Assembly (NCBI GenBank): GCA_902625535.1
Contig: CACOBT010000007.1
Coordinates: 5,220-69,219 of the forward strand
Direction of reading: 5' to 3'
Source: an uncultured beta proteobacterium
Lineage (GTDB): Bacteria > Pseudomonadota > Gammaproteobacteria > Burkholderiales > Burkholderiaceae_A
Length of the DNA stretch: 64,000 nt
Shown: piece by piece, positions 26,140 to 52,351 of the stretch
Layout: every line of letters starts with the position of its first letter
Numbering within the stretch: the first letter of the stretch is position 1
Position numbers and translations under genes: made by a program
Notes under the pieces: model-generated
Database searches by the model: none
The model's input: only the letters and a program-made list of their open reading frames with translations
What the model was told of the DNA's origin: nothing

Positions 26140-26661
26140 TTGAACTCATTTTTGGAACACAGAATTATTAATTCTTCAACCGTCACATTAGGTTATTCAG
26201 ATACCGAGGATCGGTTATGGATACGTATTCTTAATAAGGATGGAACCGACAAGAAAATGTGGTTGACTCGAAATCTATGTGAAAAAATTTGTATATGTTT
26301 GGTATCCAACTTAGAAAAAACATTAAGTCCTAACTCTGAAAAAAACTCGAAACCGTCTAAAAATATGGCAAAAATATTGGCAACTGAACATCAAGTTGCT
26401 CTCGAGGAGGCAACAAAAAAAAAACCTAACGATTCTGTTGAGGCTGTAAAACCTAAATATAATTCTCCAATACGATTATGTAGCTCCGTTAACATCCAAT
26501 TTGGGAAAGCCTGGAAATTGCAGTTTTTTTGCGCGGAGGAAGCTAATTCCTTTGAGATCAAAACAGACCGTAAGAATATTCACCAGATACTATCCGCTAT
26601 TATAAAACAATGTGCCCAGGCGAATTGGAATATTGAAAATCTCCCTAAATGGGGATTATAG
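26140..26661 (+). CDS. hypothetical protein (start uncertain)
   Basis: 173-aa ORF opening 3 nt after the tRNA at a TTG. The first ATG is 39 codons in. No recognisable motif. Confidence 0.35.
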   Translation: MNSFLEHRIINSSTVTLGYSDTEDRLWIRILNKDGTDKKMWLTRNLCEKICICLVSNLEKTLSPNSEKNSKPSKNMAKILATEHQVALEEATKKKPNDSVEAVKPKYNSPIRLCSSVNIQFGKAWKLQFFCAEEANSFEIKTDRKNIHQILSAIIKQCAQANWNIENLPKWGL

Positions 26662-26677
26662 TGTTCTAGTCTTTAAT

Positions 26678-26902
26678 TTATTTTTTAAACTGATCCTTCC
26701 ATGCATCTACAGCATTCCCGGCACGCTTACCAGCATCCTTTCTCATAGTACTTGAACCACGGTATGCTTTTTTGCGCTCATATTTTTTTCTATCCACATA
26801 TGCTTTGCGTTTCTTAAACACATAAATTGCCGAAAAACTCGCACCCCCTAAAGCTATTCCACTTAAAGCCGCAATTATAACTTTCCGTTTGACAGAATTC
26901 AT
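26678..26902 (-). CDS. small Lys-rich single-TM protein, unknown function
   Basis: 74 aa. TM 'VIIAALSGIALGGASFSAIYVF' followed by a basic tail. Confidence 0.4.
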   Translation of the reverse strand: MNSVKRKVIIAALSGIALGGASFSAIYVFKKRKAYVDRKKYERKKAYRGSSTMRKDAGKRAGNAVDAWKDQFKK

Positions 26903-27227
26903 TTAAGGATTCTCTTATTTTGTCGATGTAAGTACATAGTATACTAGAATTAGCGGAAAAAAATTTATGTTCTCAAGTCTCGTAGTTGCTTTAATTATTA
27001 CTCCTTTGGAGCTGTCTCCCAAACTGATGTGGTGCGCAAAAAAGTCAAACCAAACTCACATAAGCTACTGCTTCAAAGAAAAAAAAGATTGCTATAGTTT
27101 TAGCTCTCAAAAGCAGAAGCAATTTAAGGAAAAGTACCTATTTCCGTGTCTACCTACGAAGGTTTAGCAAAAAAAGAATGTAAATTGAAGACAACAGTAA
27201 TTCAAGAACCAACGATTGGCAGAAAAA

Positions 27228-28325
27228 TTAATTAGTTTCAAACAAAATACGAAGAAAAAAATAGATCAGTTGTAAATATAGGCAGACTTCAAAAATATTC
27301 AATCCATTAACTTTTCTAATCACAAGTGCTAATAGATACCCCATCCAAATAAAGATTGATGTTAACCCCATATAATAATCAGAATTATTTATTATAATTT
27401 GGTGATAGGAATAACTTTTATCTACAGCATAAAATAATCCGCATAACACTATCACGTGAATATATCGTTGATTTTTATCTAATAAATGATAAATTTTTTC
27501 TTTCAATGTCTTTTCCTTATAAATCTCTTCCGTAGATATATTAGGAATAGGTGTGTGAGCATTATCAACGATTTTATTTTTTGTATCCAGAATGCTTTTG
27601 CTCACCATCTGAATTTTTTTTAAAATAATCGAATCATTTTTAATATTCCTCAATCCCCTAATTAGTTTCTTCAAATTGTATTTCTCATCTTCTGCAGGAT
27701 TAGAAGAAAATAAATCTTCAAGTGCGAACGAGACGCTATGAAATATTACTGAAAGCGGACATTTCAATTTCTCAACATTTAAATCCTTTATCCAATAATT
27801 TTCGTAGTCTTCCATCGATACCTCAATTATCTTATTTGAATTCCTATGATATTCCTTCCCATAAAAATTAAAGAATGTATCCCAATCTCTACTGATTGCA
27901 TCTACAAGATCTTTGTGTTGCTTCTCCAGGTTTGGCAAGATCCATAAGGGTTTCTGTAGTCTAAAGATAGAACTCGTTGATATACTGAAATCAATGACAT
28001 ATATCTTCGTAAAGCAAGTTGTAGAACTCTCCTTAAATGTAAGGTTACGGAGGGCCACATCATAATGAAAGATACCTAAATTGTAAATTTTCTGAATGGC
28101 ATTCATAATCGCTAGGGCTATTTCTAGCTTTTGGTTAAATGATAAGCATTTTTTCTGTTCAAAAAGATTTACTCCCACATTATCCATAATAATTTTTTTT
28201 TTATTTGCAATTCCTTGTCTTAAGATGGGAACAGGTGCATCACGCTGGTTTAGATAAGTGAGAATTTGTATTTCCCTGAAATAAGAATAAGAATTGTCAA
28301 AAACCTTATCAAATTTATCCTTCAT
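27228..28325 (-). CDS. membrane-anchored protein-kinase-like protein lacking the N-lobe
   Basis: Catalytic-loop-like 'GIFHYDVALRNLTF' (HxDxxxxN) and 'IYVIDFSIS' (DFG-like). No Gly-rich loop or VAIK lysine upstream. About 3 C-terminal TM segments. Last gene of the SEDS/PBP/FHA/PP2C operon. Confidence 0.6.
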   Translation of the reverse strand: MKDKFDKVFDNSYSYFREIQILTYLNQRDAPVPILRQGIANKKKIIMDNVGVNLFEQKKCLSFNQKLEIALAIMNAIQKIYNLGIFHYDVALRNLTFKESSTTCFTKIYVIDFSISTSSIFRLQKPLWILPNLEKQHKDLVDAISRDWDTFFNFYGKEYHRNSNKIIEVSMEDYENYWIKDLNVEKLKCPLSVIFHSVSFALEDLFSSNPAEDEKYNLKKLIRGLRNIKNDSIILKKIQMVSKSILDTKNKIVDNAHTPIPNISTEEIYKEKTLKEKIYHLLDKNQRYIHVIVLCGLFYAVDKSYSYHQIIINNSDYYMGLTSIFIWMGYLLALVIRKVNGLNIFEVCLYLQLIYFFLRILFETN

Positions 28326-29007
28326 TTTTTTTTTCTATAAAAGCCATGCAGATAGACATATCGTCTTTGCTGCCTCTTTCTCCTGAAATACTAAGCAAGG
28401 ACTCAACAATCTTTCTAAGGTTAGATGGATTAAATTTCTTTATGTCTTTTTTATTTAATATTTTTTCTATGTCACTATTTTTTATGAAGTCACCAACTCC
28501 ATCAGACATCAGAAAGACACATGCTACGTTTTCTCGATATAATCTCGTATAGTGTACCAACTCACAAACGTCAGACCCTATAAGCTGCCAGGGATTACCA
28601 TTATAATCCAAATCTCTAGGTATACTGCAGTGTTCAGTCCATTCTCCATCTGGATTACGCGTAAATACTTTGCCATAACTATCTCCAACACTAATGATTT
28701 CATACGAGTCTTTTAATATATTCAAACCAAGTAACGTTGATGCTCCAGCCTCATTATTCAAGGCGCAATTTTCGTGTATGTCTAATACAATTTTTGATAT
28801 TTCTCGTTCTCTATCTACTTTTTTCATGGCGATCGAACTTATCTTTTTTGAGAACAGACTAGCCAACTTCTTTGCTAATTTGCCACTATTTTTACACGAG
28901 TTAGCTCCATCACATAAAGTAAAGCTATCTGAAACTCGAGCAAAAGCATCAAAACACTCATACTTACGTTTCCCACCATTAATGACAACTGCATATTCAT
29001 AGGTCAT
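28315..29007 (-). CDS. PP2C-family Ser/Thr phosphatase
   Basis: PP2C motif series 'LCDGANS', 'SVGDSYG', 'FLMSDGVGDF', 'GSKDDMSI'. 230 aa. Confidence 0.8.
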   Translation of the reverse strand: MTYEYAVVINGGKRKYECFDAFARVSDSFTLCDGANSCKNSGKLAKKLASLFSKKISSIAMKKVDREREISKIVLDIHENCALNNEAGASTLLGLNILKDSYEIISVGDSYGKVFTRNPDGEWTEHCSIPRDLDYNGNPWQLIGSDVCELVHYTRLYRENVACVFLMSDGVGDFIKNSDIEKILNKKDIKKFNPSNLRKIVESLLSISGERGSKDDMSICMAFIEKKNEG

Positions 29008-29011
29008 TTTT

Positions 29012-29995
29012 TCAAACTATGGTGGGACGTGGTGTCTTATCTGTTGCGTGAGTTTCTTCGCGTGACACTGGTTGAAGCTCCAAAACTGGGAATTCAGCAG
29101 GATCAACATTTCCCGTTAAGTGCCCAATCTTTTCAGGAGGAACACCAAGATACAATCGTTCCCCGGTTATTTTTACAGGATAATTCTTGCCACGTTCCAA
29201 AATCTCACCCTCTTTATTTTTACAAGTTAAGGTAGCCTCCTCAGGAATTGAATAAAACATCTTATCTAAAATTGAATAAATGAAAATTTGGTGCCTTGAT
29301 ACATATTTTGCCTTAATGAGAACTGGAGTGATTCCAAAGTCTCTACAAGCAGTATCCGGATTTTTACCTAAAAGAGTCGGTAGTGTTACTTTTTCAGTCC
29401 TATGTCCATCTCGATCAGTAATAAGTACTTTGAGGTTAACTTTGGTTCTTACTTGATCAGTATGATTTTTTGTTATAAGATCAGTTATATGGTCGGTATT
29501 CCTTTTATTCTTTTTAGGATTTCCTAATTTTGCATCACTCGAAAAAAGAATTCTTCTCCCCTTTATAGAAATGAGATACTTCTCGTCTTCTGAATTTCCC
29601 TCTAAACTTCTAACATCGATTTTAAAAGTTGGGACAAGATCATCCTCTATGACAACTCTTGCCCCCCTATCCGAAAAGTACTCCTGCTGTAAAAAGGATT
29701 TGCAGAATTCTTTTCGAAACTCTGGATTTATATCCTCATGCACTCTAAGAAACTCCTCAAGAGCTCGCGCAACTTCAATATCATTTGGGACAAAGTTCAG
29801 TGATTGTAATGGGAAATAGGACTCCTCTAATACACTTCTCATGTATTTTCCTTCTATCCTATTAACTGCTTTAGTGATAGCGTCGGTTGAGGTCGCTTTA
29901 AGCTCCACCAAAAGGACATCCGCGAAGCTATCGGTATTGTCTGTAAATATAAAATTTTTATTGCTAGATAATTTCTTTTTAAACCAATCAAACAT
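29012..29995 (-). CDS. FHA-like domain protein (FhaA/TagH-like architecture)
   Basis: C-terminal 'LLGKNPDTAC...YVSRHQIFI...VKITGERLYLG' resembles the FHA GR / SxxH / terminal-Gly pattern, with R->K and one residue missing. Start set at the ATG 1 nt after the upstream TGA. Confidence 0.5.
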   Translation of the reverse strand: MFDWFKKKLSSNKNFIFTDNTDSFADVLLVELKATSTDAITKAVNRIEGKYMRSVLEESYFPLQSLNFVPNDIEVARALEEFLRVHEDINPEFRKEFCKSFLQQEYFSDRGARVVIEDDLVPTFKIDVRSLEGNSEDEKYLISIKGRRILFSSDAKLGNPKKNKRNTDHITDLITKNHTDQVRTKVNLKVLITDRDGHRTEKVTLPTLLGKNPDTACRDFGITPVLIKAKYVSRHQIFIYSILDKMFYSIPEEATLTCKNKEGEILERGKNYPVKITGERLYLGVPPEKIGHLTGNVDPAEFPVLELQPVSREETHATDKTPRPTIV

Positions 29996-29996
29996 A

Positions 29997-30329
29997 TCAA
30001 ACCTCATCTTTACTAACTTCGATAATCTCAAAATAATCATAGTTTTCTTTGGGAGGAGTCTTTTTCGTTTTGATAATTGTAACCTCCAAAAGATATTGGT
30101 TAAAGCCTTCTATTTCGTTTATTTGATCGAAAAAAATTTCTTTAAACTCTGATTTTGAAATTTCTCCGTAGATCACTTCAGGTATGTTTACCTTCACATA
30201 CCTCTTTTCTTCAATTCTTTTTTTTAATTCGATAACAAATGATAACAAACACTCTTTTGAGTTGGTATTGTTTCGAAAATATTTATATTCTGTTAGCATG
30301 TCTGGGCTATAAAAGTTAACTTCACTCAA
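29997..30329 (-). CDS. hypothetical 110-aa protein
   Basis: Translationally coupled on both sides: 8-nt overlap with the PBP-like gene, and stop TGA-T-ATG to the FHA-like gene. No recognisable motif. Confidence 0.5.
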   Translation of the reverse strand: MSEVNFYSPDMLTEYKYFRNNTNSKECLLSFVIELKKRIEEKRYVKVNIPEVIYGEISKSEFKEIFFDQINEIEGFNQYLLEVTIIKTKKTPPKENYDYFEIIEVSKDEV

Positions 30330-32349
30330 AAAAAATATATTTGAGTATTTTCATGTGCAAATCGGCAGCCCTATTTGGAACATCGGAATTTCCACTTTCA
30401 GAAACAATAATTCCAACAGCAACTTGGTTATAATCTTTTATTTTTATTTTGTAATTTGTAAGCTTAGCTAAATTTTTAATATCAGTTAGTCCTCCAAAAA
30501 GAGTTTTCCCTCTATGATTTTTATCTTGAAAACTCACTGTACCTGTCTTGCCTAAGATCGGACATCTCTGTTGACATATCCCATTAAAAGTGTTGGAAAA
30601 TGCTTTACTCGCAGTTCCACTCCCTTTCCAATCACTTGTCTCGGGCATTAATACTTGTTCTAAACCCCTTAAAACTGTATTAGCTGAATTTGAGTCTTCT
30701 TTTAGAACAAAACTCTGAGCTTTTTTTGTAGACAAAGAATCAGTCTTTTTTTCCATCATAAAGGGTAAGATAGGATGAACATTGTTTTTTAATTGAAATA
30801 AGTTTGAAATTATTGATGCGACGCCGAGCGCACTAACTCTCGAATCTCCTCCTCCTATAGAAGCCTGGATAATTCGAGTTGTGTTTCCCAATCTTAAATC
30901 ATTACCGATTGAAGATTTATTTAAACCATCCCGAAATTGGTTATAAGCATCCCATGAGAGAAATTCTACGATGCCGTTTTCATTCAACTGCAAACCGTCC
31001 TGGATAGGAAGATAACCTAGGAATGGAGACAGATTACTTTCTAATGAGTCTCCATTTGCAATGAATGGAATACTTCCACAGTTAGGATCAAATGGTCGAT
31101 AAAGTCCCTCGCTTCTTCCGAAAACAGAGCCGTTCGCACAATTTGTAGAAAACCCAAACATATTAATATAGTAACCCGTACGTATCAACGTTGAACAAAT
31201 ATTCCTATCGGTTGCTCCATCACAAATTGCCCTTCTTTCCCACCATTCATTTCTTTTTCCTGATGGGCTTTGATTGTTACCAGAGGTTTTTAGTTGATTC
31301 AATATCTCTACAGTATTATTATTTCCCTCAGAGGCAATGCCTAGACCAAAAAATAATTTTGAAATTGATGCGGGCGGCGAACGTACCCTCAACGTCGCCA
31401 AATCCCCCAACGGCTTAAGCCCATTTTCTGAGCAAAATGACCCCATGCACTTAACACCAATTATGCCACTTGTAAAAGGATCAATTAATACTATAGAAAT
31501 TCCCTCTAATTGATCTATACGTAGAATCGTGGTGTCACAACGCACTGAATCCTCAAAACAAATTTCAAGAGAATTTAAAGACAACTGAATATTCGGATTC
31601 AAGGTTAAAAGATAATCAAAATTTTTGGACTTAATTCCTCCGACTGAACCATCTTGCTTATTTTTTATTTTTGTTTGAGCCTCAAGTTTTCTAGCAGTAT
31701 TTGTCAGATTTTTAAGTTTAGGAAAATTCAAAAATGTTTCTATATTTTCTCGTTCAACGATACAATGCTTAATTGAACCTGCAAGATAGACAAGTTCATC
31801 GGATTGTAACTTATGATAGAGGCATAAAGGTTTTTTCTTCCATTCTAAATCTTCGGTGAGATAAGCCTTAACCATACCTTTAATACTAGAAGACTGATTT
31901 TTTCCTTTAACATTTATTTTTTTTGCCACCTCAAGATCCTGTATCAATTTTATACATTCATTGCGAAAAAATGGATAATAAAACTTACTTATAGATCTGA
32001 TATATTTTTCTTTAGTCATCCCTGGATAATTCCGTAAAATTTTCATTGAGGAAGAATAAATTATATTTTTTGTTCTTTGGTTGCATGAAAACTGATTTAT
32101 AAACTGTACAACCGGATTAAAATTTTGATCCTCTTTGTCATTCGGTCTATAATTAATCGACTCCGGATATGTATTCCACTCCTCTATCAGGTTAGAAATT
32201 CGAGTTACTTTTTCTTTTGGAGCATATGGACCTGTTGTTATCGTGTTTGTCTGTAATGCATTTGAAAGAAATAGAATTATTATTGATATCAAAGAGGATA
32301 ACCCCAGAATATACAAAAATCTAATCACTAATACTTTGCTATAAATCAT
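30322..32349 (-). CDS. penicillin-binding-protein-like transpeptidase (class B-like)
   Basis: N-terminal TM. 'ISIVLIDPFTSGIIGV'. SxxK 'PPAS328ISK331'. SxN candidates 'S356GN' and 'S401TN'. 'IGGGDSRVSALGVASIISN'. 'GK601TGT'. Confidence 0.75.
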   Translation of the reverse strand: MIYSKVLVIRFLYILGLSSLISIIILFLSNALQTNTITTGPYAPKEKVTRISNLIEEWNTYPESINYRPNDKEDQNFNPVVQFINQFSCNQRTKNIIYSSSMKILRNYPGMTKEKYIRSISKFYYPFFRNECIKLIQDLEVAKKINVKGKNQSSSIKGMVKAYLTEDLEWKKKPLCLYHKLQSDELVYLAGSIKHCIVERENIETFLNFPKLKNLTNTARKLEAQTKIKNKQDGSVGGIKSKNFDYLLTLNPNIQLSLNSLEICFEDSVRCDTTILRIDQLEGISIVLIDPFTSGIIGVKCMGSFCSENGLKPLGDLATLRVRSPPASISKLFFGLGIASEGNNNTVEILNQLKTSGNNQSPSGKRNEWWERRAICDGATDRNICSTLIRTGYYINMFGFSTNCANGSVFGRSEGLYRPFDPNCGSIPFIANGDSLESNLSPFLGYLPIQDGLQLNENGIVEFLSWDAYNQFRDGLNKSSIGNDLRLGNTTRIIQASIGGGDSRVSALGVASIISNLFQLKNNVHPILPFMMEKKTDSLSTKKAQSFVLKEDSNSANTVLRGLEQVLMPETSDWKGSGTASKAFSNTFNGICQQRCPILGKTGTVSFQDKNHRGKTLFGGLTDIKNLAKLTNYKIKIKDYNQVAVGIIVSESGNSDVPNRAADLHMKILKYIFFE

Positions 32350-34351
32350 GTATTGACCCTCGTTTGTTAATTCTCATTGTCAATCCAATAAAAAGGCCGT
32401 AGGTAAGGCAGGGTATAATAATCGCCGTAAACCCTATACTTGTGAATGGAATACTTATGCCAGATAAGGGGATTAACCGCCAGTTTCCAAATGTACTTAA
32501 AATTATCTGGATAATACTGCTACATGAAATATAGAAAAGAAATATCGAAAGTAGCCTATTCTCCTTCTCACCTGTTAAAAAAATATAGAAGGTTTTGGCA
32601 GCAATGAACGCAAAAAAACCCACTAGGATCAAAAGAAAAATTATCGCACCATAGAAGCCAAAAATTTTCTCTATCACGAGTGGCATATAATCACTCAAAA
32701 CCTGCAGAGGAACGCAGACACCGTAGTCGTTACACCAGGAATAACCAACCAGAAGACCGTCTTCATCTGAATTAGAAAAATTAATTAGCCTCGCAAAATC
32801 ACTCACTGGCGCATTCATTGGTTCCATCATTAACGTGACGCGCTCCCTAACTTTCTCTGTAAATGAGGCAAAATACCCAAGTACAACTAAAATTAAAAAC
32901 CAAAAGAAAAAAAATCTTAATCCAAAAACTATTGAGACTAGTATCATTATCAATACAAAAGTAATGAATACTCCACCAATATCGTTAAAAATAAATAAAC
33001 TAAAAAAAATTAAAGAAAACGTGATTAATAAGAAGTAAAAAAAAGCTCGATATATATGGACCATGAGAAAATCAGATGTCATGATATTGTCATTTGAGTA
33101 TTTTTTCCAAAATAAAAATTCTTTCAACTTAGTCATACTAAAGGTGCTACTACAATATTTCTGTATCAAGAAAATCTCCCGTGCATGACGGCTAGTCATA
33201 AACGCAGAAAATAAGACTATAAAAATTTTCATTATCTCAGAACCTACTGCGGCAGAAAAACTTGCATAGCCAGCAAAACCGATTAGAATGCCAAAAAAAA
33301 CTAATTTTCTCTGATGTTGATGCATTCGCTGTAACACTATCTTAAAGTAATCTAGATAGAATATTGATGCGAAGAGCACAGTATATCCAACTAACGTGAC
33401 TAAAACTTGTCTTTTGAAAATATCAATAAACGGACTAATAATAAACTGGGAAGAGGTAAATCCGAAATTGATAGCTGCGTCAAGTGTTATATAAAGAGAT
33501 ACGCATATAAAAAAGCACAAGGATGTGAGATAAACTAGCAATGTTTTCGATTGATGTTCCAGATAAAAATAGACTATAAACATTAAGGGGACTATGATAA
33601 TCAACGGTAGATAATTTTTTAATATCGATATTGTACGATGTGTTTCCTCTAATTCACCCCCCTGTCGTAGTATTGTTCCAATTCCCCATGAAACTTTTTT
33701 AAATTCACCGCTAACTTGTGAGTACAACATTCCATCAAGTTCAAGAGATATCAAAAATAAATTGCGATATTGACGTTCTCGTTGTGTTTCATCATGAAAC
33801 AAATTATCTTCTAGGTCTTTGAATCGCTTCTGCAAATTATTTACACGTTGGTCTATTAATAGAGCGAGTGTTTGTTGTTGTTCGCTCCGATCAGAACTCC
33901 CTATTAGATGATTCCTTAGAAAAACCAAAAATTCCAGTTTCTCTCTTTTATCTTGATAAATATTGTTCCAAATCTCCTGGTATGATTTATCACTTAGTTT
34001 CTGGTTCTTTGAACTTGATAATAAACTGGAGATATAGTCTAAATATTTCCTTATTCCGTGATGTTGGAAATTATCGCTGATGATATCTCCTGTAAAACAG
34101 TTAACCTGTTCTACGTTAGTTTGTCTGAATGCTGAGCATAAAATCTCGCTGTCGGATTTCTCACCTAGGATTGGGATTCTAGATTTGTCAAAATTCTCAA
34201 TTTCACTTGCTGTATTTTGATATGCCTCATTTAAAGAGTAAAGCCTGGTTTCGTCGTTGATTAAGCTTAGATTAGATAGGTAGAGCATTACTACCAGTAA
34301 TGATAAAATGAATATAGCGTGTGTGTTTTTTTTATTCGAAAACTTTCTCAT
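32339..34351 (-). CDS. SEDS-family (FtsW/RodA-like) membrane protein with ~240-aa N-terminal extension
   Basis: Polytopic C-terminal ~430 aa with 'NDIGGVFITFVLIMILV' (cf. PDLGTAL) and near-C-terminal 'GISIPFTSIGFTAII' (cf. G-PLPF-SYGGS). 11-nt overlap with the PBP-like gene. Confidence 0.7.
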   Translation of the reverse strand: MRKFSNKKNTHAIFILSLLVVMLYLSNLSLINDETRLYSLNEAYQNTASEIENFDKSRIPILGEKSDSEILCSAFRQTNVEQVNCFTGDIISDNFQHHGIRKYLDYISSLLSSSKNQKLSDKSYQEIWNNIYQDKREKLEFLVFLRNHLIGSSDRSEQQQTLALLIDQRVNNLQKRFKDLEDNLFHDETQRERQYRNLFLISLELDGMLYSQVSGEFKKVSWGIGTILRQGGELEETHRTISILKNYLPLIIIVPLMFIVYFYLEHQSKTLLVYLTSLCFFICVSLYITLDAAINFGFTSSQFIISPFIDIFKRQVLVTLVGYTVLFASIFYLDYFKIVLQRMHQHQRKLVFFGILIGFAGYASFSAAVGSEIMKIFIVLFSAFMTSRHAREIFLIQKYCSSTFSMTKLKEFLFWKKYSNDNIMTSDFLMVHIYRAFFYFLLITFSLIFFSLFIFNDIGGVFITFVLIMILVSIVFGLRFFFFWFLILVVLGYFASFTEKVRERVTLMMEPMNAPVSDFARLINFSNSDEDGLLVGYSWCNDYGVCVPLQVLSDYMPLVIEKIFGFYGAIIFLLILVGFFAFIAAKTFYIFLTGEKENRLLSIFLFYISCSSIIQIILSTFGNWRLIPLSGISIPFTSIGFTAIIIPCLTYGLFIGLTMRINKRGSIHDL

Positions 34352-34366
34352 GGATTCACTGACATA

Positions 34367-34714
34367 ATGAAATCAAAATACTTCCTAGTAACACTATTTA
34401 CTATATCATTACTCATGTCTTTTGGTTGCGATCAAATTTTGAACAGAACTCTGGAATCAATTAAAGAAGTGAAGGAAAATCCACCTACACTAAACCAGGA
34501 AAAAAGCGAGCGAGAAGAATTAATTCCTGATAAGGATAGAATCGTAAATGGCACAGCAAAAGAAGAGGAAAAACCCTCGCAAAAAATAGTAATCGAAAAT
34601 ACTTCGAATGCTGATGATAATCGGATATTAGAAAAAGAATATAATGTGATAGGAACCGACAAAGATGGTCCTTATAGGTCCGGAGAAATTAACCGTATAC
34701 GCTCACGGAAATAA
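34367..34714 (+). CDS. small secreted lipoprotein, unknown function
   Basis: 'MKSKYFLVTLFTISLLMSFGC' signal peptide with lipobox. Glu/Lys-rich mature part. ATG 34367 preferred over GTG 34319. Confidence 0.55.
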   Translation: MKSKYFLVTLFTISLLMSFGCDQILNRTLESIKEVKENPPTLNQEKSEREELIPDKDRIVNGTAKEEEKPSQKIVIENTSNADDNRILEKEYNVIGTDKDGPYRSGEINRIRSRK

Positions 34715-35875
34715 CTATTTATCCTGATCACTTTTTTCTTCGAATGTGGAAATAATTCCCTTAAGGGTACCATCAAACTTTCCAATATCCTCAACAAGTT
34801 CCTCCAAAGTCATATTTTCCCAAATTGCAACTCGTCTTAATACATAAGAGGAGGGACTATGTGGCTCTATTGCCCTCAGTTTTTTCGATAGATCTCTTAT
34901 ATTCTCATAAATTTCATTTCTTTGATCTCTTTCATTCTTTGCAAGTAAGGGACGTTTTTCAACGGCCACTCTACTATTTTTCTTTTGTTCCTCACCGACT
35001 AATATTTTTAAGTCTTGTTGAAGTCCATCTTTGGAAATTGTTTGCTCCATTGGAGAAGATCCTTCAACCATATTAGCCCCCTCTTTAGGTAAATGACTTT
35101 TTATTTTATTATTAAAGAATTCAATTTCTGTAAGAAAAGTTAGCATTTTTACAAATGAAATTGCTTCACTTCCCAGTTTTTCATCCAACAATGAGTCAAT
35201 TTTCTTTACTATCTCTATTGATTCGTTAGTATTCAGGTCCAAATCTTTCAAATAACTAGTATCATCTTTCTGCACATGGATATCCGAAATTTTTGAGTTA
35301 ATTGGCGGAGAATCTTGCCTTTCAAGTTGATTTGTTAGAGTTAATACTCTATTTTTGATCTTCAAATAATCGAGATAGTTGAACTCTTTTTCTCGTCCTT
35401 TATTGCTCGGAAGAAGAACAATATTTTCCATTAAGAAGTCGGGGCCCTTAGTAGCCAGCCACTTATACGGTGCTATACGTGATTCGGGATCAGTTACATC
35501 ATATTTTGGCCATAATGTATCCCAGTACTTTTCAGTAAGTTGGAACATCAGCAAAAGACCAAATTTTAAGCCTTCCATACCCGCCAAGGATGTCCATCCT
35601 TGTATTAAAAATATGCATATACTAAGGTCCTTGGTCTCTGTTTGCAGTAATTCTGAAGAAATATTAACCACTTTTTTCCAATCCGTTTGTTTTAGAGGTC
35701 TTTCCCATTCCCCCATAGGTAGCGTCGGGTCATCCGCATTCTTTTCACTAAGTATGGATAAGTATCTATTATCGTATCGAGCCCATTTTCCAGAAGGATT
35801 TTTTTTCTCAATCGGCTTAAGTAGTCTCGTTAAGTCCATATCAGTAACCGAAAAAATCTCATTCTTTGACTTCAT
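34715..35875 (-). CDS. tssA: type VI secretion protein TssA (ImpA N-domain)
   Basis: ImpA_N pattern 'LLKPIEKKNPSGKWARYDNRYLSI...EWERPLKQTDWKKV...DLSICIFLIQGW'. Last gene of the T6SS operon. Confidence 0.85.
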   Translation of the reverse strand: MKSKNEIFSVTDMDLTRLLKPIEKKNPSGKWARYDNRYLSILSEKNADDPTLPMGEWERPLKQTDWKKVVNISSELLQTETKDLSICIFLIQGWTSLAGMEGLKFGLLLMFQLTEKYWDTLWPKYDVTDPESRIAPYKWLATKGPDFLMENIVLLPSNKGREKEFNYLDYLKIKNRVLTLTNQLERQDSPPINSKISDIHVQKDDTSYLKDLDLNTNESIEIVKKIDSLLDEKLGSEAISFVKMLTFLTEIEFFNNKIKSHLPKEGANMVEGSSPMEQTISKDGLQQDLKILVGEEQKKNSRVAVEKRPLLAKNERDQRNEIYENIRDLSKKLRAIEPHSPSSYVLRRVAIWENMTLEELVEDIGKFDGTLKGIISTFEEKSDQDK

Positions 35876-38800
35876 AGTTGTGGAATCTCTTTAACGTAAG
35901 ACAAAGGAAGTTTCAGTGCTTTACTATCAATTTTTCTTTTTAAAATTATCTTAAAGAAAATCCTCGCGTTGGATGGAGCTCTCCCTTTAGATAATACTTC
36001 ATTATCAATTATCACCGGGAATTCAAATTTTAACGTATCCCCAACAGCATTTTTTTCCTTGGTGACTTTATGCATATTAATCATATCGAGCAAACCCCAA
36101 CTACCAGGAAAGGAATAAATTGCTGTCTTCCCAGAAACCCGATAAAACGGATTTTGGTTATCTCTTTGAGGAGAAACATTTGTATCAGATGCAAACCTAA
36201 GTTCCAGTTTTACGGGTTCTCCAAAGTTCCACTCTATGTCTTTTTTATCGTTAAGGATATTAATCGATTTCCCCCCCGAGTGAAAAACCCATGAAATAAT
36301 TTTATTCCCGTACAATTCTCCATCGCGTCCTCCACGAACTTCTATATCAACTTCATAACCCCGATCATCTTCCTTGCTTTTTACAAGATATGGTGAGAAA
36401 AGGGATTTTAATGTATCCAAATTTGAATAAAACATAGTGACTCTATTTAATGTATCATTCTTATCAATAATCGAAATAACCTTATCCCTGGGAGGAAATT
36501 TTGAAAAAACATTTACCACTTCAAATAAACTTGCCTCTTCCAAAGCTTGATAGTCCTTCGCTGATATATTATTGAAAACTTTGTTTGCGAATGGTTTCTT
36601 CTTGAGTAAAAGATTCTTGTAGTCGAGTGATGCAGATACCCACCTTTCCTGAATACTGTAGCGCCTTAAAGAATCGCAACGCTTAGATATTTCACTTACA
36701 ATCGAACCGTACTTGAGAAAAAAAAAGTTATTATTATTTTTATTAATATCAACCTTATCTAATTTATCTCTACAATTTTCGATTGAAAAATCCTCATAGA
36801 TATCCTCTAAAAAATTTTGTAGTTGCATTAGAGTGCTACTCGGAATATTCTTATTGTAATTATAAATTTCAGAACCGATCATTCCCCAATAGTTTTTTTC
36901 GGACTTGTAATATTTTGTAGGGAGACCATCTAGATAAGCTTTTGCTAAATCACTAATTTTTTCTAATTCCGACATTTGGAATCTAAAAAATTCCTTCAAT
37001 TCCATAAAAGATTGTACCGAGTAGGAGGATTCGATTAAACCTATTCCTCCATCCCAATCTTGCACTCTTTCAAAGGCAGGAAGTAGAAAATCTTTCTCAC
37101 TTAAATAATTATTTAAAACCCCAAGTCTATTTGCAGCATCGGATATTATGATATTTTCGATTAATATCGCTTCGTTATTATGACCTGATCGTCGAGAAAA
37201 TTCCTCCGCTTGTCGCAATAGTTTGAGATTTTCTAAATATTTTTCTGAATTTTCATTTTGTAAGTTAAAGGAAGCGATGTAATCATCGATTTTTTTTCCA
37301 GAATATGCTTTTTTCAACAGATAAAAAAGATTCAGTACTTTTTCCTTATTTATACGATCCTCTACTATTTCGCTTTCGAACTTCTCAAAAGAAGGAATTT
37401 TTGATATGGCAGAAGAATCATCCATCTCTTGCAAAGATACAATTCGCTGTAAAACATCATAGTCCCAGAAATTAATTTCGTCCCCAAGCATAAAAGCCAT
37501 TTTCACATCGTTTAAGCCTTCATTTAGTATGTTTTCCCTAGCTACCGCGTCATTCAAGATAATTTCCTTAAGTTTTTGTATGTCGTTGCCTTGATTCATA
37601 TTTTTCATGAAAATAAGTACTTCGCTAAGCTTGGAAAGAGAATTAAAATATGTTGTAAGATTTCTGTTGTTTAAATCAAAACCAAACTGAATTGAGTCCT
37701 CGGCTCTATTAGAATAAGCTCTTCTAATTAATGATATTATTTTTTTCTCAACTTGGTTATCGATGCTTTCGAGCACACGGTCTCTGTATTCAGTCGGAAA
37801 TAAAATCAAGTCCTTGTTCAGGTACTTATCTCTAGAACTCCGTAGCGTTAAAGCATCATCTAAGTAATTAGTATCCCATTCAACAATTGGTCTATCCTCA
37901 TTAATTGTCATTTTTGAGTCAACATTAATAGACATAATTGGCGCAGATAAAAGTTTCTCGATAGCTTTTTGTAAATCTCTTCTTTTCTCGGAAAGGATTA
38001 GAACTTGATTTCCATTGTCATTACGACCAATCTCAATACCCTCTTCCGTACCTCTCTGAAGAACTAAGGACTCATAATTGACACGTAACCGTCCAAACTC
38101 TTTGTTTGCTCTTACCTTAATATCGGATGATATATTTGGACCTAATAGCGTATTATTTTGAATTTCTTGTAAAAATTCTTCATAGTTATCTCCCAAATCT
38201 AATTGATCCTTCAACATCCACAAACCTCCTCCTTTTGTCAACAGGATTTCCTGGTCTTGGATACTAGAAAGAATTTCCTCAAGGAGTTCTACAATTTCAT
38301 CTCCGCTAAGTTTTATAAAATCGGCAGTTAAGAATCTTTCTTGTGCCTCTACTATTTTTCGCTCATCTTCTAACAATGAATTTAAAGAAAATAATTCATC
38401 GTTCAAATTCAAAACACCCTCAATGAGCGAGCACTTCAAAGCGTTAGAGATAATTTTTGAGCTTATCACCTCTTTATTCTTATTAACTGTTTTATTAAAC
38501 AAGCTTGTTACACCAGATAAATCGCCATATAAATCGACTTGTAAAGCAAAACTCGTTAAATATCGAAAATCATCATTACTACTCCTCCCGTTATACCGTA
38601 ACCTGTTCATCGCCAAAACTGCTCTCTCTAACTCCTTTGATTTAGCTAAAAAGGTTTCGAGGGATCTGAAGTTTGGTGAATCGGAGAGCTTTAAAGATCT
38701 CCCTTCAGGAGGAGCTAATTTGCCGCTATCTCGTTCCGGTGGCTTGCAAGTATTATCCCTGAGCGATAGACTTCCAGTTACGGGGTCATAATATGAACCT

Positions 38801-40269
38801 GTTAAATCAGCGGTTTTTAATTCTAGCGATCTTTTAAAAGTATCCACTACTAATTCACCAAAATCTTCTCTGACTCGGGTATTCGCTCTCAAAAAAACGT
38901 CGTCAAAAATCGGCAATGATCCTGGAATGAAGATTGAACCGTAGTCCGTAAAACCCCCTTTGAATCTGATATTTTCTAGCTCTTCTAATCCGATGATCAA
39001 TGATACTGCCGTTTTCCTATACCACTCAAAGTTTAGTGAGTTACCAGTTCTACTTGCCTCATTCCTCTGCCTGGCATCCTCATTTAACCCTGATATTCCG
39101 TCGGTTAGTCTTCCAACAACTTGATGACCTTTTATTGCAGAAAATACAAGTCCAATTGACCAAAAAGAAATGAATGAAAAAAATAACCACTTAAAAATTT
39201 TATTAGGTTCCGAATTTTTAAATCTTTGATTATTCGATGGTCTCAATAGGCCGAACTCACCAAAAAACTTCATTCCGAACAGATCTTTAGTGAAACTCGG
39301 TTTTTTATGGTTTGTTACCATAAAAATACCTCTAAAGAAAAATGGCTCGTAAAATCCACTCGATTCTACTAGACCCTCTGTATATTCTACTAATCCATTT
39401 TGCAAATTTTTAATTTCAAGAGGCAGGAGAAACTCCTCTAGTCTATTATTTTTATCTGGATGGGACGCACCCATTTCCATTACTAAACTGCTTACTCTTG
39501 CACTAATTTCGTCTATCGCCTGAACGATCCACTTTTTTGAAAATATTGTAAAAAGATCATTAGGATTAGACCACCCTAAAATACTGTTTCTCATTGATTT
39601 TGGTAGGCTTTGCGCAAAAGAGGAAAAACCTTGAATTTCTTCACATCCAGAGACTATAAGATAGACGGGTATTCTGATTGAAAAACTATTTTGTACCATC
39701 CAAATTCGCTGGCTAGTAATCTTTGATAGATTTTTTAACACTGTTTTAGCCTCTATGTTGCTGCGCGAATCCAACAATATATTCGCGGGAACACTTATCA
39801 CAATCGAATCAATAGGCCTGCGAGGTCTATAACGGTTACAAAGTTTTAAGAACTCTGCCCACTTAATTTCCTCTCTTGATGATTCGTTTTGACCAGCCAA
39901 TGCGTTAGAAGAAAACTCTAAAATTAGACCTTTGCTAAAATAATGCCAGAAAAAACTTTTATTTCCATCTAAATTTTTTGACACACTAGAACGAGTTACG
40001 TCAATTTCTTCTATGGGAATACGATTATTCTCTCCCCCTTCATTTAAAAGAATAACCCAGGGATAATCATATTTTTTCTTCTTTGGTAGTAGCATTTTTT
40101 CTGACCCTAGGATTCCTTTTCTAAATATATCCCTGATCTTTCTTCTACTAAGAATGAACTCCTTCTTTTTTTTGCCTTGTTGTTTCACGCTAAAAAAAAT
40201 AGATAGTGAGAAAATTAATAACGCAATAAAGATAATCAAAAATAACCAAAAAAAGGATATATTACTCAT
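35872..40269 (-). CDS. tssM: type VI secretion membrane protein TssM (IcmF family), 1465 aa
   Basis: N-terminal TM, cytoplasmic domain, TM around residue 360 and a very long periplasmic IcmF-like region. Position after tssL. The P-loop position reads 'PWVILLNEGGENNR'. Confidence 0.9.
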   Translation of the reverse strand: MSNISFFWLFLIIFIALLIFSLSIFFSVKQQGKKKKEFILSRRKIRDIFRKGILGSEKMLLPKKKKYDYPWVILLNEGGENNRIPIEEIDVTRSSVSKNLDGNKSFFWHYFSKGLILEFSSNALAGQNESSREEIKWAEFLKLCNRYRPRRPIDSIVISVPANILLDSRSNIEAKTVLKNLSKITSQRIWMVQNSFSIRIPVYLIVSGCEEIQGFSSFAQSLPKSMRNSILGWSNPNDLFTIFSKKWIVQAIDEISARVSSLVMEMGASHPDKNNRLEEFLLPLEIKNLQNGLVEYTEGLVESSGFYEPFFFRGIFMVTNHKKPSFTKDLFGMKFFGEFGLLRPSNNQRFKNSEPNKIFKWLFFSFISFWSIGLVFSAIKGHQVVGRLTDGISGLNEDARQRNEASRTGNSLNFEWYRKTAVSLIIGLEELENIRFKGGFTDYGSIFIPGSLPIFDDVFLRANTRVREDFGELVVDTFKRSLELKTADLTGSYYDPVTGSLSLRDNTCKPPERDSGKLAPPEGRSLKLSDSPNFRSLETFLAKSKELERAVLAMNRLRYNGRSSNDDFRYLTSFALQVDLYGDLSGVTSLFNKTVNKNKEVISSKIISNALKCSLIEGVLNLNDELFSLNSLLEDERKIVEAQERFLTADFIKLSGDEIVELLEEILSSIQDQEILLTKGGGLWMLKDQLDLGDNYEEFLQEIQNNTLLGPNISSDIKVRANKEFGRLRVNYESLVLQRGTEEGIEIGRNDNGNQVLILSEKRRDLQKAIEKLLSAPIMSINVDSKMTINEDRPIVEWDTNYLDDALTLRSSRDKYLNKDLILFPTEYRDRVLESIDNQVEKKIISLIRRAYSNRAEDSIQFGFDLNNRNLTTYFNSLSKLSEVLIFMKNMNQGNDIQKLKEIILNDAVARENILNEGLNDVKMAFMLGDEINFWDYDVLQRIVSLQEMDDSSAISKIPSFEKFESEIVEDRINKEKVLNLFYLLKKAYSGKKIDDYIASFNLQNENSEKYLENLKLLRQAEEFSRRSGHNNEAILIENIIISDAANRLGVLNNYLSEKDFLLPAFERVQDWDGGIGLIESSYSVQSFMELKEFFRFQMSELEKISDLAKAYLDGLPTKYYKSEKNYWGMIGSEIYNYNKNIPSSTLMQLQNFLEDIYEDFSIENCRDKLDKVDINKNNNNFFFLKYGSIVSEISKRCDSLRRYSIQERWVSASLDYKNLLLKKKPFANKVFNNISAKDYQALEEASLFEVVNVFSKFPPRDKVISIIDKNDTLNRVTMFYSNLDTLKSLFSPYLVKSKEDDRGYEVDIEVRGGRDGELYGNKIISWVFHSGGKSINILNDKKDIEWNFGEPVKLELRFASDTNVSPQRDNQNPFYRVSGKTAIYSFPGSWGLLDMINMHKVTKEKNAVGDTLKFEFPVIIDNEVLSKGRAPSNARIFFKIILKRKIDSKALKLPLSYVKEIPQL

Positions 40270-41231
40270 CAGAGTTCTCTCGTCTTAGAGTTATTTTTTT
40301 CAATCAAATCTAGAATTACTAATCTGTAATTGAGAGTTTTTTGTATTTGTACGGTCTTCTTAACATCGAGGACCTCACGTAGTGGTTTTGTTATAACTAA
40401 ATAAACTACCTGGGAAAACAGTAAAAGCAAAATAGTTATAAGAACTGAGATCAATACTGGTTTATTCAAACGAAAAAATTTTACAGGATTAAAATTCGAA
40501 ATTATTCGTTCGTAGTGGACAGAATCAATCTGGTCATATCCTTCTATCCTAGATGATGACCGATTGAGACCCGGCTCTTTTTTAACGAGGTAAACATAGA
40601 GTAACCGTATGTATTCTCGAATATCCTCCTTCGACTCCTTACCTCTATACTGTCCTTCGAAACCAATGATTAGCGCCTGCAGATATAATTCTGCAAGATC
40701 ATCCCTCTGTTCGCTTTTAGAACTTAATAGATGATCTATCCGATCAAATATTTGTTGGCCAGCAATGCTTGTTTTAAATATTTTTTCCTCAATCAAATAA
40801 TTAATAAACTCAGATCGTCCAGGCCACGGTCGACTCAGGAAAAGTTCATCGGCTACCGCTGTAAAAATATACCAAATTTCCTCGTTCCTCTCTTTTTCCA
40901 GAGGCATTGCAATTTTAGCGAACTCAATTTTCTTAAGTTCCAAAAGTCTACATACCCTATCACGGACTTGTAAAGCTAATGATTGTGGTGGTGTTAATTC
41001 TCGATTTTTTGCTTCCATTTTCAGAGAATCATTTTCTATATTTTTAGCGTTTCCGGTTTGAGATAACTCTGTATTTTTTAATATAGTCAAAATTTCTGTA
41101 AGGAACTCTCTAAGTTGAGTAACACTTGTACTCGTACGGATTTCTCCACCTGCTTTTTGCGAATTCAATTCGACAATTGTCGCGTGATTATCTATTCTTG
41201 GTTCGAGATATTTATCGTTAAAATCTTTCAT
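40269..41231 (-). CDS. tssL: type VI secretion protein TssL (DotU family)
   Basis: DotU core 'IWYIFTAVADELFLSRPWPG', 'LYLQALIIGFEGQYRG'. Single C-terminal TM. No OmpA-like extension. Confidence 0.85.
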   Translation of the reverse strand: MKDFNDKYLEPRIDNHATIVELNSQKAGGEIRTSTSVTQLREFLTEILTILKNTELSQTGNAKNIENDSLKMEAKNRELTPPQSLALQVRDRVCRLLELKKIEFAKIAMPLEKERNEEIWYIFTAVADELFLSRPWPGRSEFINYLIEEKIFKTSIAGQQIFDRIDHLLSSKSEQRDDLAELYLQALIIGFEGQYRGKESKEDIREYIRLLYVYLVKKEPGLNRSSSRIEGYDQIDSVHYERIISNFNPVKFFRLNKPVLISVLITILLLLFSQVVYLVITKPLREVLDVKKTVQIQKTLNYRLVILDLIEKNNSKTREL

Positions 41232-41235
41232 TAAT

Positions 41236-42564
41236 TTATTCAGTTATATTTTTCTCGCCTTTAACAAAAAGTAGCATTCCTTGAGGAACTACATAAACTA
41301 AATTACCTGCCGATGGTACGACTTTTATGCGATACTCTGAATCCTCTAAGTCTTTTGGGCATAAAACCTCAAATAATTCGATACCGGGAAGAGACTTCAG
41401 CTTTAGTTTAGAATCACCATCAATTCTTCTTCTTTTCATACCGAGAATTCTTTTCTCTCTACACTTTACAATTTCAGTGGACTTTTCAATTATTATTGAC
41501 TTAATCCATGTGTCAACATTTTCGAGCGGTATTCCTTTTACACCAAAAACTAGAGATTGATCTACCCACTCCGGTCTTAAGACTATTTCAAAGCTGTCAT
41601 TTTCTTTCGTGAACGGGATCTCATGATAACTCTGACTTACTTCCTCTAAGAATTTAAACAAACTGGAAAATAGTGATGAGAAAATGTTATGCAGATTATT
41701 ATGAGAATATTTTGGAGGACATGTAGGAATTCCTCCAACTTTTAATTGACTGAGGGGACCTAATAAATCACAAAGAACGATATATAAGTGGCGCGGCGAA
41801 ACAACCTCCATCTGAATTAGACTTTCTAATTTTGGTAAAGCAAACGCCATGAGGCTAAGTCTTTGTATAGTGGACGTTTGATCAGGGTCGGAAAAATTTC
41901 TCTCTTGTGAATCAACCTGTCGAGCAAAAAAAGTTGCTTTAGAACGCAGCTCCTCAGCGAGACGTTTTAACTCATTTGTTAAGAAGTCGGAAACACTAAT
42001 ATCAATTAATGGGGGAATATAATCGCTAATCTTTATGACACCATCTTCACTTTTTAAAACACAAAGTCTAAAGGCGGTATATGAACCAGGTGGTCGCTGA
42101 CCTGCATATATTTTTAAATTGTGTGCTAATCTCGGTATATCGATTGGTTCTCCATCCTGGAAATCATCTGGAACAGGATCGCCAACCTTTTCCTCAAAGC
42201 GAAAATTACCCTCTTTATTTTTTTTTGTTCCTATTGGTAGGCCGATAAAAATATTTATGCTTTCTGCATTCTTTGTATCCTCAGATAATTCATCTAATTT
42301 AATCTCCAATGATGAAGTTTCCACCTCTCCATCCCAATTCACAGCAGTGCCATCAGGCATAAATGCATCCAGCTTTAATATTCGAAAAATACCTCCTGCG
42401 AGTAAAGCATTATCAACTTTTAGATTCTTAATTCCCCACGAATCGCCAAATCTGCTCATAGTATGAAAAGCGATCAGTTGATCTACTCTTGATGATTCTG
42501 TTTGAAAATGCTGTGGAGATAGTAGCATTCCTTCATGCCATTGGATCCTATCTAAAATATTCAT
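41236..42564 (-). CDS. tssK: type VI secretion baseplate protein TssK
   Basis: N-terminus 'IQWHEGMLLSPQHFQ' characteristic of TssK. 442 aa. Confidence 0.9.
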   Translation of the reverse strand: MNILDRIQWHEGMLLSPQHFQTESSRVDQLIAFHTMSRFGDSWGIKNLKVDNALLAGGIFRILKLDAFMPDGTAVNWDGEVETSSLEIKLDELSEDTKNAESINIFIGLPIGTKKNKEGNFRFEEKVGDPVPDDFQDGEPIDIPRLAHNLKIYAGQRPPGSYTAFRLCVLKSEDGVIKISDYIPPLIDISVSDFLTNELKRLAEELRSKATFFARQVDSQERNFSDPDQTSTIQRLSLMAFALPKLESLIQMEVVSPRHLYIVLCDLLGPLSQLKVGGIPTCPPKYSHNNLHNIFSSLFSSLFKFLEEVSQSYHEIPFTKENDSFEIVLRPEWVDQSLVFGVKGIPLENVDTWIKSIIIEKSTEIVKCREKRILGMKRRRIDGDSKLKLKSLPGIELFEVLCPKDLEDSEYRIKVVPSAGNLVYVVPQGMLLFVKGEKNITE

Positions 42565-42576
42565 TCGTAACCCCTA

Positions 42577-43298: not shown

Positions 43299-43308
43299 TT
43301 GATACCTC

Positions 43309-47426: not shown

Positions 47427-47427
47427 T

Positions 47428-52350: not shown

Positions 52351-52351
52351 T

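Follow-up and report, generated by a model that had tools for sequence, protein, structure and literature searches.

In a 64,000-nucleotide stretch of DNA from an uncultured beta proteobacterium of the Burkholderiales (contig CACOBT010000007.1 of assembly GCA_902625535.1; the whole stretch is hereafter referred to as the window), we identified a compact gene cluster, next to a type VI secretion system (T6SS) locus, encoding relatives of the SEDS family and of class B penicillin-binding proteins (bPBPs), a small protein, a protein with a forkhead-associated (FHA) domain, a PP2C-type phosphatase, a kinase-like protein and a lipoprotein. We interpret these seven genes as an independent, phospho-regulated accessory module for peptidoglycan synthesis, whose adjacency to the T6SS is inherited and not functional, and give this interpretation a probability of roughly two in three. 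Across 88 distinct loci the seven genes remain together through at least four rearrangements, and no locus of sufficient length separates the SEDS, PBP, FHA, PP2C and kinase genes. As the family is rare, and its scores against the ftsW and mrdA equivalog models amount to about a tenth or less of the cut-offs, we argue that the SEDS-bPBP pair is accessory, existing beyond the housekeeping RodA-PBP2 and FtsW-FtsI pairs.

Six of the genes occupy positions 27228-34351 on the minus strand and are packed as tightly as a first-pass annotation of the window had described. Together with the seventh gene and the adjacent end of the T6SS locus, they comprise the following open reading frames (ORFs):

27228-28325, minus strand: kinase-like gene, 365 aa
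28315-29007, minus strand: PP2C gene, 230 aa
29012-29995, minus strand: FHA gene, 327 aa from the ATG picked in the first-pass annotation
29997-30329, minus strand: orf110 (small protein), 110 aa from TTG 30329, more likely 100 aa from ATG 30299
30322-32349, minus strand: class-B-PBP-like gene, 675 aa
32339-34351, minus strand: SEDS-like gene, 670 aa
34367-34714, plus strand: small lipoprotein gene, 115 aa, seventh core gene
34715-35875, minus strand: tssA, the next minus-strand gene, at the end of the T6SS locus

The SEDS and PBP genes overlap by 11 nt and the PBP gene and orf110 by 8 nt, the latter provided that the TTG start is used; the stop codon of orf110 leads into the FHA start as TGA-T-ATG, a gap of 4 nt separates the FHA and PP2C genes, and the PP2C and kinase-like genes again overlap by 11 nt. 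For orf110 the ATG at 30299 is the more likely start, because homologues begin there. G+C content is about 36%. The lipoprotein gene, previously noted as the only one separating tssA from the module, does lie there, but on the opposite (plus) strand, running towards tssA so that its end directly abuts the tssA stop codon, and its start codon diverges from that of the SEDS gene at a distance of 15 bp (34352-34366). Because of this opposite-strand gene the six genes are not a simple continuation of the tssA transcript, and the 15-bp spacing implies either that each promoter lies inside the other gene or that transcription reads through from tssA antisense to the lipoprotein gene. A promoter and terminator scan of positions 26600-35000 performed no better than on shuffled sequence (38 sites against 33 expected). 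The same 15-bp divergent spacing was also observed in locus L006.

Relatives of the module were sought by several routes. A word-indexed protein search returned 20 relatives of the PBP-like protein, and a pattern scan using one genome per species located 16 loci among 185,579 species genomes, to which a metagenome scan added 80 further loci; a HMMER search of 1.84 billion representatives with a profile of the PBP-like family returned 65 matches at E<=1e-3, of which 44 reached E<=1e-30. In total, 88 distinct loci were obtained. All informative carrier titles name Burkholderiales or Betaproteobacteria, and include both marine metagenome-assembled genomes (MAGs; MED-G174, AG-913-B20, AH-736-P17 and TMED82) and freshwater carriers, the latter comprising Comamonadaceae, Polaromonas and Burkholderiaceae MAGs as well as Polynucleobacter sp. 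IMCC 30228. The window organism is likewise marine, with MED-G174, AG-913-B20 and TMED82 as its closest named MAGs, and no recorded contig encodes a protein identical to the window PBP. In one Comamonadaceae MAG (L012, 7203-8012, plus strand) a weakly DDE-transposase-like ORF lies directly upstream of the module, a neighbour that hints at mobility.

The domain content proposed for the six genes in the first-pass annotation was only partly recovered by Pfam, where the phosphatase passes its threshold as PP2C_2 and the SEDS, transpeptidase, FHA and Pkinase assignments fall below cut-off or return no match; the assignments nevertheless hold once evidence from folds, motifs and sister modules is added. 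For example, the SEDS-like protein scores 12.1 bits against PF01098, below the family cut-off of 26.4, and matches the ftsW model TIGR02614 over residues 438-658 at E=7e-10 (38.5 bits against a cut-off of 337.5). Alignment of the family profile with Escherichia coli RodA by hhalign (E=9e-5, 59% probability) placed S553-D554-Y555 on the T-D-F motif of extracellular loop 4, and the C-terminal stretch RLIPLTGxxxPxxSIGxS on the C-terminal motif of RodA. Residues E372, K375, R391 and D554 are invariant among nine sequences with identities down to 23%, as are those of the C-terminal stretch R625..P628-L629..G631..P635..S638..G640. The protein therefore carries the catalytic aspartate of loop 4, the E/K motif after transmembrane (TM) helix 3, and a C-terminal motif of the PxxGxxLPxxSxGGS type, all of which contribute residues with functional roles in SEDS proteins. 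Searches of the PDB with the family sequence or profile returned no SEDS protein and no other relevant match. The N-terminal extension, earlier put at about 240 aa, is present and spans about 265 aa; judging from hydrophobic segments, it would consist of two extra TM helices around a periplasmic segment of about 215 aa, followed by a ten-TM core of normal topology. Two invariant cysteines (C72 and C85) lie in the periplasmic segment, and the cytoplasmic loop between TM helices 4 and 5 is unusually long and variable.

The PBP-like protein has no Pfam match, PF00905 included, and matches the mrdA model TIGR03423 at 3e-5 over its C-terminal third only (residues 493-672; 22.7 bits against a cut-off of 455). 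PDB searches with the sequence and profile of its family likewise gave no relevant match. Alignment with E. coli PBP2 by hhalign covered the stretch LTLDxxxQ...DPxTGxIL...PPASxxK, and a Foldseek search of the PDB with an AlphaFold2 (AF2) model returned 194 matches at E<=1e-3, of which the best 50 listed were all class B PBPs or PBP-type transpeptidase entries. With helix 2-32 as the predicted anchor, the modelled protein combines a transpeptidase fold with an N-terminal membrane anchor, as in a class B PBP; a pedestal domain of bPBP type was not confirmed in the model. As the first reading of the sequence had it, SxxK and KTG are retained on either side of a long Cys-rich insertion, and both are invariant across the family. 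The invariant positions are S328xxK331, S356-G-[QNS] and K601-T-G (601-603), conserved down to 22-24% identity, with further invariant stretches SPPAS[IT][SA]K, Q-x-K-T-S356-G, RNEWWE, IGxGxxR...LG and K601-T-G-T-V. From S328 to K601 the spacing is 273 residues; the equivalent spacing in E. coli PBP3 and PBP2 is about 187-214 residues. The protein has an N-terminal TM helix, a periplasmic N-domain rich in cysteines, and the transpeptidase domain that bears the insertion; four of its 14 invariant cysteines (376, 385, 404 and 424) lie inside the extra stretch.

Further support came from the weak tail of the PBP profile search. These outgroup matches were considered as possible canonical PBPs, a possibility that was rejected, as they proved to be other atypical PBP-like proteins without a PDB sequence match. 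They belong to sister modules with the order SEDS-PBP-(small)-FHA(-PP2C), represented by L105 (38% GC), L106 (53% GC) and L103 (70% GC), in which Pfam does recognise FtsW/RodA (PF01098 passes), Transpeptidase, FHA and PP2C domains. The C-terminal halves of the sister SEDS proteins share about 29-35% identity with the SEDS proteins of the window family (E down to 2e-20; 28.8% and 1.4e-10 for the window protein itself), and the sister PBPs match the family from the IGxGxxR motif to KTG. This chain of homology provides independent support for the domain assignments. The sister modules differ from the window family in having longer FHA proteins (497-554 aa) without a T-P-x-P tail. These similarities show that the window family diverged within a broader type of module, itself uncharacterised, which, given the occurrence of sister modules on contigs of 38%, 53% and 70% G+C, appears to extend beyond the Burkholderiales.

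The genes on the cytoplasmic side encode the elements of a probable threonine-phosphorylation switch. Among their products, the FHA protein pairs a novel N-terminal domain (about residues 24-160) with an FHA domain towards the C-terminus (about 187-310), and its tail is conserved. Sequence searches with this protein gave no match in Pfam (PF00498), NCBIfam or the PDB. Its AF2 model has a mean predicted local distance difference test (pLDDT) score of 74, with most 10-residue blocks of the stretch 187-310 scoring 81-92, and Foldseek aligned it with FhaA of Mycobacterium tuberculosis (3oun, TMt 0.76, rmsd 2.9), as well as with the FHA domains of Rv1747, Rv0020c, DgcB, OdhI and GarA. In the loops, S233-R234 is invariant, G210 and the R after it are conserved (the window protein has K in place of this R), and [ST]-L-[ST] stands where the Asn-Gly loop would be. 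The predicted structure accordingly displays the beta-sandwich and phospho-threonine-binding loops of an FHA domain, and no structural match was found for the N-terminal domain (24-160). The small ORF 3' of the PBP gene (88-110 aa) was present in every clade examined, including the clade with a split arrangement. Its product is conserved and cytoplasmic, with the pattern LLAFxLxLRxxL...IPxS[VI]...FxE[IL][IV]FD, and the orf110 product has no Pfam or NCBIfam family match.

The phosphatase matches PF13672 (PP2C_2) at 4e-10 (40 bits against a cut-off of 24) and retains the invariant Asp motifs D33-G, G-D109-S, D169-G and D215-D216, motifs which in PP2C phosphatases bind metal. The kinase-like protein is more divergent: between the hinge and the DFG motif its family profile matches PDB entries for eukaryote-type protein kinases (about 1.6e-6), and D89, N94, D112-F113 and the R17-E18 pair of helix alpha-C are invariant, with a score of 18.6 bits against Pfam Pkinase (cut-off 31.7) and an E-value of 1.3e-7 against the Bud32 model TIGR03724. 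All members of this family begin at about helix alpha-C and have neither a Gly-rich loop nor a clear beta-3 Lys; the latter might be replaced by K7, which is mostly conserved and lies within an F-x-K-x-F stretch. The core is cytoplasmic and followed by C-terminal TM helices, with no sizeable periplasmic or sensor domain. We also considered whether the FHA N-domain or the small protein could be the missing kinase N-lobe, which found no support, as the model of the N-domain is mostly helical and has no kinase match.

The kinase-like and FHA proteins share a short motif:

27543-27554, minus strand: T-P-I-P motif (T258-P261) of the kinase-like protein, in the linker that joins its core to the TM helices
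29024-29035, minus strand: T-P-R-P motif (T321-P324) of the FHA protein, in its C-terminal tail

Of 54 distinct FHA homologues, 52 have T-P-x-P among their final 22 residues, in the form T-P-x-P-x-[V/I/A], and 43 of 48 distinct kinase homologues have it in the linker (about residues 239-310), with T258, P259 and P261 invariant in the family alignment. Both exceptions among the FHA proteins (L067 and L074) possess the tail T-L-V-P-N-V and are accompanied by a kinase linker reading T-Q-I-P-I-V; in L065 the FHA tail keeps T-P-I-P-N-V and the linker reads T-L-I-P-I-V. In one subclade, then, the two sites drift together. A probable explanation is that T-P-x-P represents a common phospho-acceptor or FHA docking site, a prediction drawn from these conservation patterns.

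Also identified as part of the module was the lipoprotein. In the window it carries the lipobox LMSFG-C and a mature N-terminus Cys-Asp-Gln-Ile, and a lipoprotein with mature C-D-Q-[ILV] was found beside the module in every clade with a readable flank, with minor variants (CDL in L016, CGQ in L071). Its gene diverges from the SEDS gene in the marine and most freshwater clades, and is convergent after the PBP and small-protein genes in the clade with the split arrangement, where the FHA-PP2C-kinase genes are inverted. Because it accompanies the module across clades, the window lipoprotein gene is assigned to the module and not to the T6SS. Marine copies are linked to one another by tblastn, and freshwater copies (nbA/pA) contain a TPR domain (NF047558 at 6.9e-8). 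On position and shared N-terminus only, the window protein is placed as a short relative of these TPR lipoproteins. In E. coli, Asp at position +2 combined with Gln at +3 strongly signals retention in the inner membrane, and by analogy with this rule, which derives from E. coli and not from the present organisms, we infer that the lipoprotein is retained in the inner membrane.

Examination of gene neighbourhoods revealed a diversity of contexts for the module. Of the 88 distinct loci, 46 have a flank of 3 kb or more on one side. Among these 46, T6SS genes adjoin eight, all marine; a set of genes for secreted proteins and lipoproteins, termed nb/p, adjoins 23; and the remaining 15 have housekeeping or unrelated neighbours, once including the transposase-like ORF. 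No locus has both T6SS and nb/p genes. Within 5-10 kb of the module, no T6SS gene was found in the freshwater relatives from Comamonadaceae, Polaromonas and Polynucleobacter. At least four placements of the nb/p set around the module were seen, namely divergent upstream, convergent downstream, co-directional and split, and this variety is good evidence for a functional tie between the two. In the Polynucleobacter-type set, one protein passes the LpoB model TIGR02722 (125.5 against 110.55), LpoB being an activator of PBPs, and no Pfam or NCBIfam match was found for the three larger freshwater partners nbB, nbC and nbD. The set in its four-gene form, as in L021 (2382-7650, minus strand), encodes a TPR lipoprotein (about 185 aa), a protein rich in Ser and Ala (about 570 aa) and two others (about 737 and 226 aa); it was also observed in L013, L014, L016, L038, L040, L044, L047, L069, L076, L077, L090, L094 and L099. 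The variant set, which includes an LpoB-model lipoprotein and a neighbouring 128-aa protein, lies next to the module in Polynucleobacter sp. IMCC 30228 (L015, 2920-7007, minus strand), and was also observed in L049, L065, L068 and L078.

These contexts bear directly on a proposal in the first-pass annotation, namely that the module performs phospho-regulated wall synthesis or repair coupled to the T6SS. In its strongest form, marine lineages would have recruited the module as a dedicated T6SS cell-wall builder or repairer, in which the kinase, FHA and PP2C proteins switch a private SEDS-PBP pair, and local synthesis opens, reseals or reinforces the wall around TssJLM or repairs damage from attack. 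Wherever the flank of a marine sublineage is long enough (window-like, MED-G174-like, TMED82-like, L036 and L037), the order tssK-L-M-A, lipoprotein, module is indeed conserved, at PBP identities down to 31-33% and in carriers with small genomes (contigs of 1.5-1.8 Mb); the marine clades are without the nbB-D/p partner genes of their freshwater relatives, and the T6SS locus of the window contains no recognisable peptidoglycan-remodelling or peptidoglycan-binding accessory gene. However, tol-pal and the sulfur-transport gene on the other side of the module are conserved to the same degree, as simple synteny would lead one to expect: tolB is found there in all of the marine T6SS loci except the truncated L006, which has pal-cpoB and the sulfur-transport gene. 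Furthermore, the lipoprotein gene on the opposite strand intervenes between tssA and the module, and 38 of the 46 loci have no T6SS gene and represent at least three other contexts. The FHA and kinase proteins of the window do not match the NCBIfam model of the T6SS Fha protein, nor any PpkA model or architecture. The T6SS accessory genes listed in a 2026 review include those for peptidoglycan-binding proteins and hydrolases, and none for a synthase or PBP (PMC13584744); our literature search found no T6SS-linked SEDS protein or PBP. Homologous units beside T6SS genes in other genomes were found, but only in close syntenic relatives. Coupling to the T6SS is not borne out and in our judgement unlikely; a T6SS-recruited module, if real, would be the first synthase-type T6SS accessory. 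The second proposal of the first-pass annotation, an independent morphogenetic module that merely co-resides with the T6SS, fits the data. Given the equal conservation of tol-pal on the other side, the adjacency is most readily accounted for by inheritance of the gene order among the marine clades and not by functional coupling.

Two further explanations concern what the SEDS-PBP pair does. It might represent a strongly diverged housekeeping elongasome or divisome pair of streamlined bacteria, in line with the finding that neither mrdAB nor ftsWI occurs within the 64-kb window. Against this, the family was found in 16 of 185,579 species genomes, and only one returned genome is labelled Polynucleobacter, a genus in which many species have been described. 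The scores of 38.5 against 337.5 bits for ftsW and 22.7 against 455 for mrdA fall well short of the equivalog cut-offs, neither dcw nor mre genes were seen among the neighbours, and one copy adjoins the transposase-like ORF, so that we consider a housekeeping role highly improbable. Alternatively, the SEDS and PBP proteins may no longer be enzymes, and instead serve as periplasmic sensors or scaffolds (of BlaR or PASTA type) or act on another lipid-linked glycan, with the cytoplasmic trio as the real output. Such a role would accommodate the extreme divergence from the canonical families (no PDB sequence match, Pfam scores below threshold), the large novel Cys-rich periplasmic domains on both proteins, the absence of a sensor domain from the kinase, and the secreted freshwater partners without assigned function. 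Yet every catalytic residue of both proteins is invariant, which is unexpected for a pure scaffold, and the partner set of one clade includes an LpoB-model protein; we therefore regard a loss of enzymatic function as doubtful.

Several observations also weigh against the accessory synthase module that we favour. The SEDS, PBP, FHA and kinase parts do not reach Pfam's curated thresholds, and the AF2 model of the PBP-like protein has a moderate mean pLDDT of 63. The second motif of this protein is S-G-[QNS] and not S-x-N, in that the Ser is invariant and the Asn is not. With its Gly-rich loop and clear beta-3 Lys absent, the kinase-like protein could be a pseudokinase. The T6SS adjacency of the marine clades persists to about 31-33% protein identity, and does so in small genomes. 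Finally, all members are known from sequence and models only.

If the accessory synthase interpretation is correct, the SEDS-like protein would polymerise lipid II into glycan strands, which its class-B-PBP-like partner would cross-link, with both enzymes bearing extra disulfide-rich periplasmic domains. The membrane-anchored kinase-like protein would phosphorylate the T-P-x-P threonine in its own linker and in the FHA tail, and the FHA domain would bind the phospho-threonine either in trans or in its own tail, as in GarA and OdhI, possibly switching between tail and kinase. Through the N-domain of the FHA protein, the small protein, or both, this switch could be coupled to the SEDS-PBP pair or recruit it, for which the long variable cytoplasmic loop between TM helices 4 and 5 of the SEDS-like protein is a candidate contact, and the phosphatase would reset the state. 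From outside, the Cys-rich domains and the lipoprotein, joined in freshwater clades by LpoB-type or other partners, may target or activate the synthase. Both the phosphorylation wiring and the gating of the synthase by the FHA protein are deduced from the gene content, motifs and models described above.

The closest known parallel, as recognised in the first-pass annotation, is the actinobacterial fhaA-fhaB-pstP-rodA-pbpA-pknA-pknB cluster, where SEDS, bPBP, FHA, PP2C and membrane kinase genes are also co-located. As in Mycobacterium, Corynebacterium and Streptomyces, the genes for a SEDS protein, a bPBP, FHA protein(s), a PP2C phosphatase and a membrane Ser/Thr kinase form one operon-like unit; mycobacterial FhaA, Rv1747 and GarA-type domains have the FHA folds most similar to that of the window protein, and the logic would be phospho-threonine control of a SEDS-bPBP pair. 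Unlike the actinobacterial cluster, the present module resides in a Gram-negative Burkholderiales host, in the order SEDS-PBP-small-FHA-PP2C-kinase. It has a single FHA protein with a novel N-domain, and a kinase without a PASTA or other extracellular domain and without a Gly-rich loop. It also adds Cys-rich periplasmic domains, a lipoprotein, a small protein and the kinase/FHA T-P-x-P motif. Sequence similarity is too low for Pfam, and the likeness is one of gene content and not of established orthology. A 2025 survey also described extra SEDS/bPBP sets in Senegalimassilia, Streptomyces and Pedobacter ginsengisoli, which have Ser/Thr kinase and phosphatase genes on their flanks, sit beside intact housekeeping pairs, and include one case from the Gram-negative Bacteroidota (PMC12516126). 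Those cases differ in being fusions or Pfam-typical proteins, and in that neither an FHA, lipoprotein or small-protein partner nor any such example from the Burkholderiales is described (PMC12516126). The survey relied on InterPro domains (PMC12516126), and we infer that it would miss the window family, since Pfam does; indeed, domain-based surveys in general would miss the module, as most of its proteins are unrecognised by Pfam. The T6SS phosphorylation pathway (PpkA/TagE, PppA/TagG, Fha/TagH and TagQRST) resembles the window in placing a kinase, a PP2C phosphatase and an FHA protein at a T6SS locus, but in the present family the FHA domain is C-terminal and not N-terminal, the kinase has no periplasmic domain, and the trio always occurs with a SEDS-PBP pair and mostly without a T6SS. 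No description of such a module in Proteobacteria was found in our literature search.

The remainder of the window provides the genomic setting. Downstream of the module, on the plus strand, lie tolQ...tolB-pal-cpoB and the sulfur-transport gene, and the remaining window genes are housekeeping genes. Between the module and the sulfur-transport and tol-pal genes is a 173-aa ORF without assigned function (26140-26661, plus strand), which is kept in all marine relatives at 36-67% identity. The genes amgK and murU (13047-14821, plus strand), which provide the peptidoglycan recycling bypass with its MurNAc/GlcNAc kinase and its uridylyltransferase, are located beside lptD-surA, 12 kb from the module. 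The T6SS locus itself (35872-53066 together with tssA, minus strand) comprises tssB, tssC, hcp, tssE, tssF, tssG, vgrG, tssK, tssL, tssM and tssA. Among the annotated window ORFs there is none of ClpV/TssH size, and no recognisable TagH/Fha, PpkA, TagL or TagX. TssM is long (1465 aa), with a Pfam match at its N-terminal IcmF-related domain only. Just upstream of tssK, a 173-aa ORF with the lipobox LLING-C and no family match (42577-43098, minus strand) is probably a diverged TssJ. Also present are a MORN-repeat protein directly after vgrG (43677-44288, minus strand), which may be an adaptor or effector, and an acidic, coiled-coil-like 225-aa protein without a family match upstream of tssB (52389-53066, minus strand). 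A histidine kinase (53171-54928, plus strand) and a LuxR-type response regulator (54930-55532, minus strand) flank the head of the T6SS locus and are candidate regulators. A role in anti-phage defence was also considered and dropped, as the PADLOC defence models gave nothing significant.

Proteobacteria are taught as having two SEDS-bPBP machines, RodA-PBP2 and FtsW-PBP3, controlled by MreBCD and the divisome and not by eukaryote-type phospho-signalling. If our interpretation holds, the module would constitute an optional third Gram-negative machine, wired like the actinobacterial growth-control cluster and built with new parts: Cys-rich periplasmic domains, a lipoprotein with a retention signal, a kinase without the glycine loop, and a docking motif shared by kinase and FHA protein. 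As one carrier, Polynucleobacter sp. IMCC 30228, is apparently a cultured isolate, these predictions are directly testable. For T6SS biology the findings advise caution, since adjacency in a few syntenic genomes does not amount to coupling. In its general version, the finding would point to a third Gram-negative SEDS-bPBP machine governed by threonine phosphorylation on the inside and by lipoproteins, of LpoB type in some clades, on the outside.

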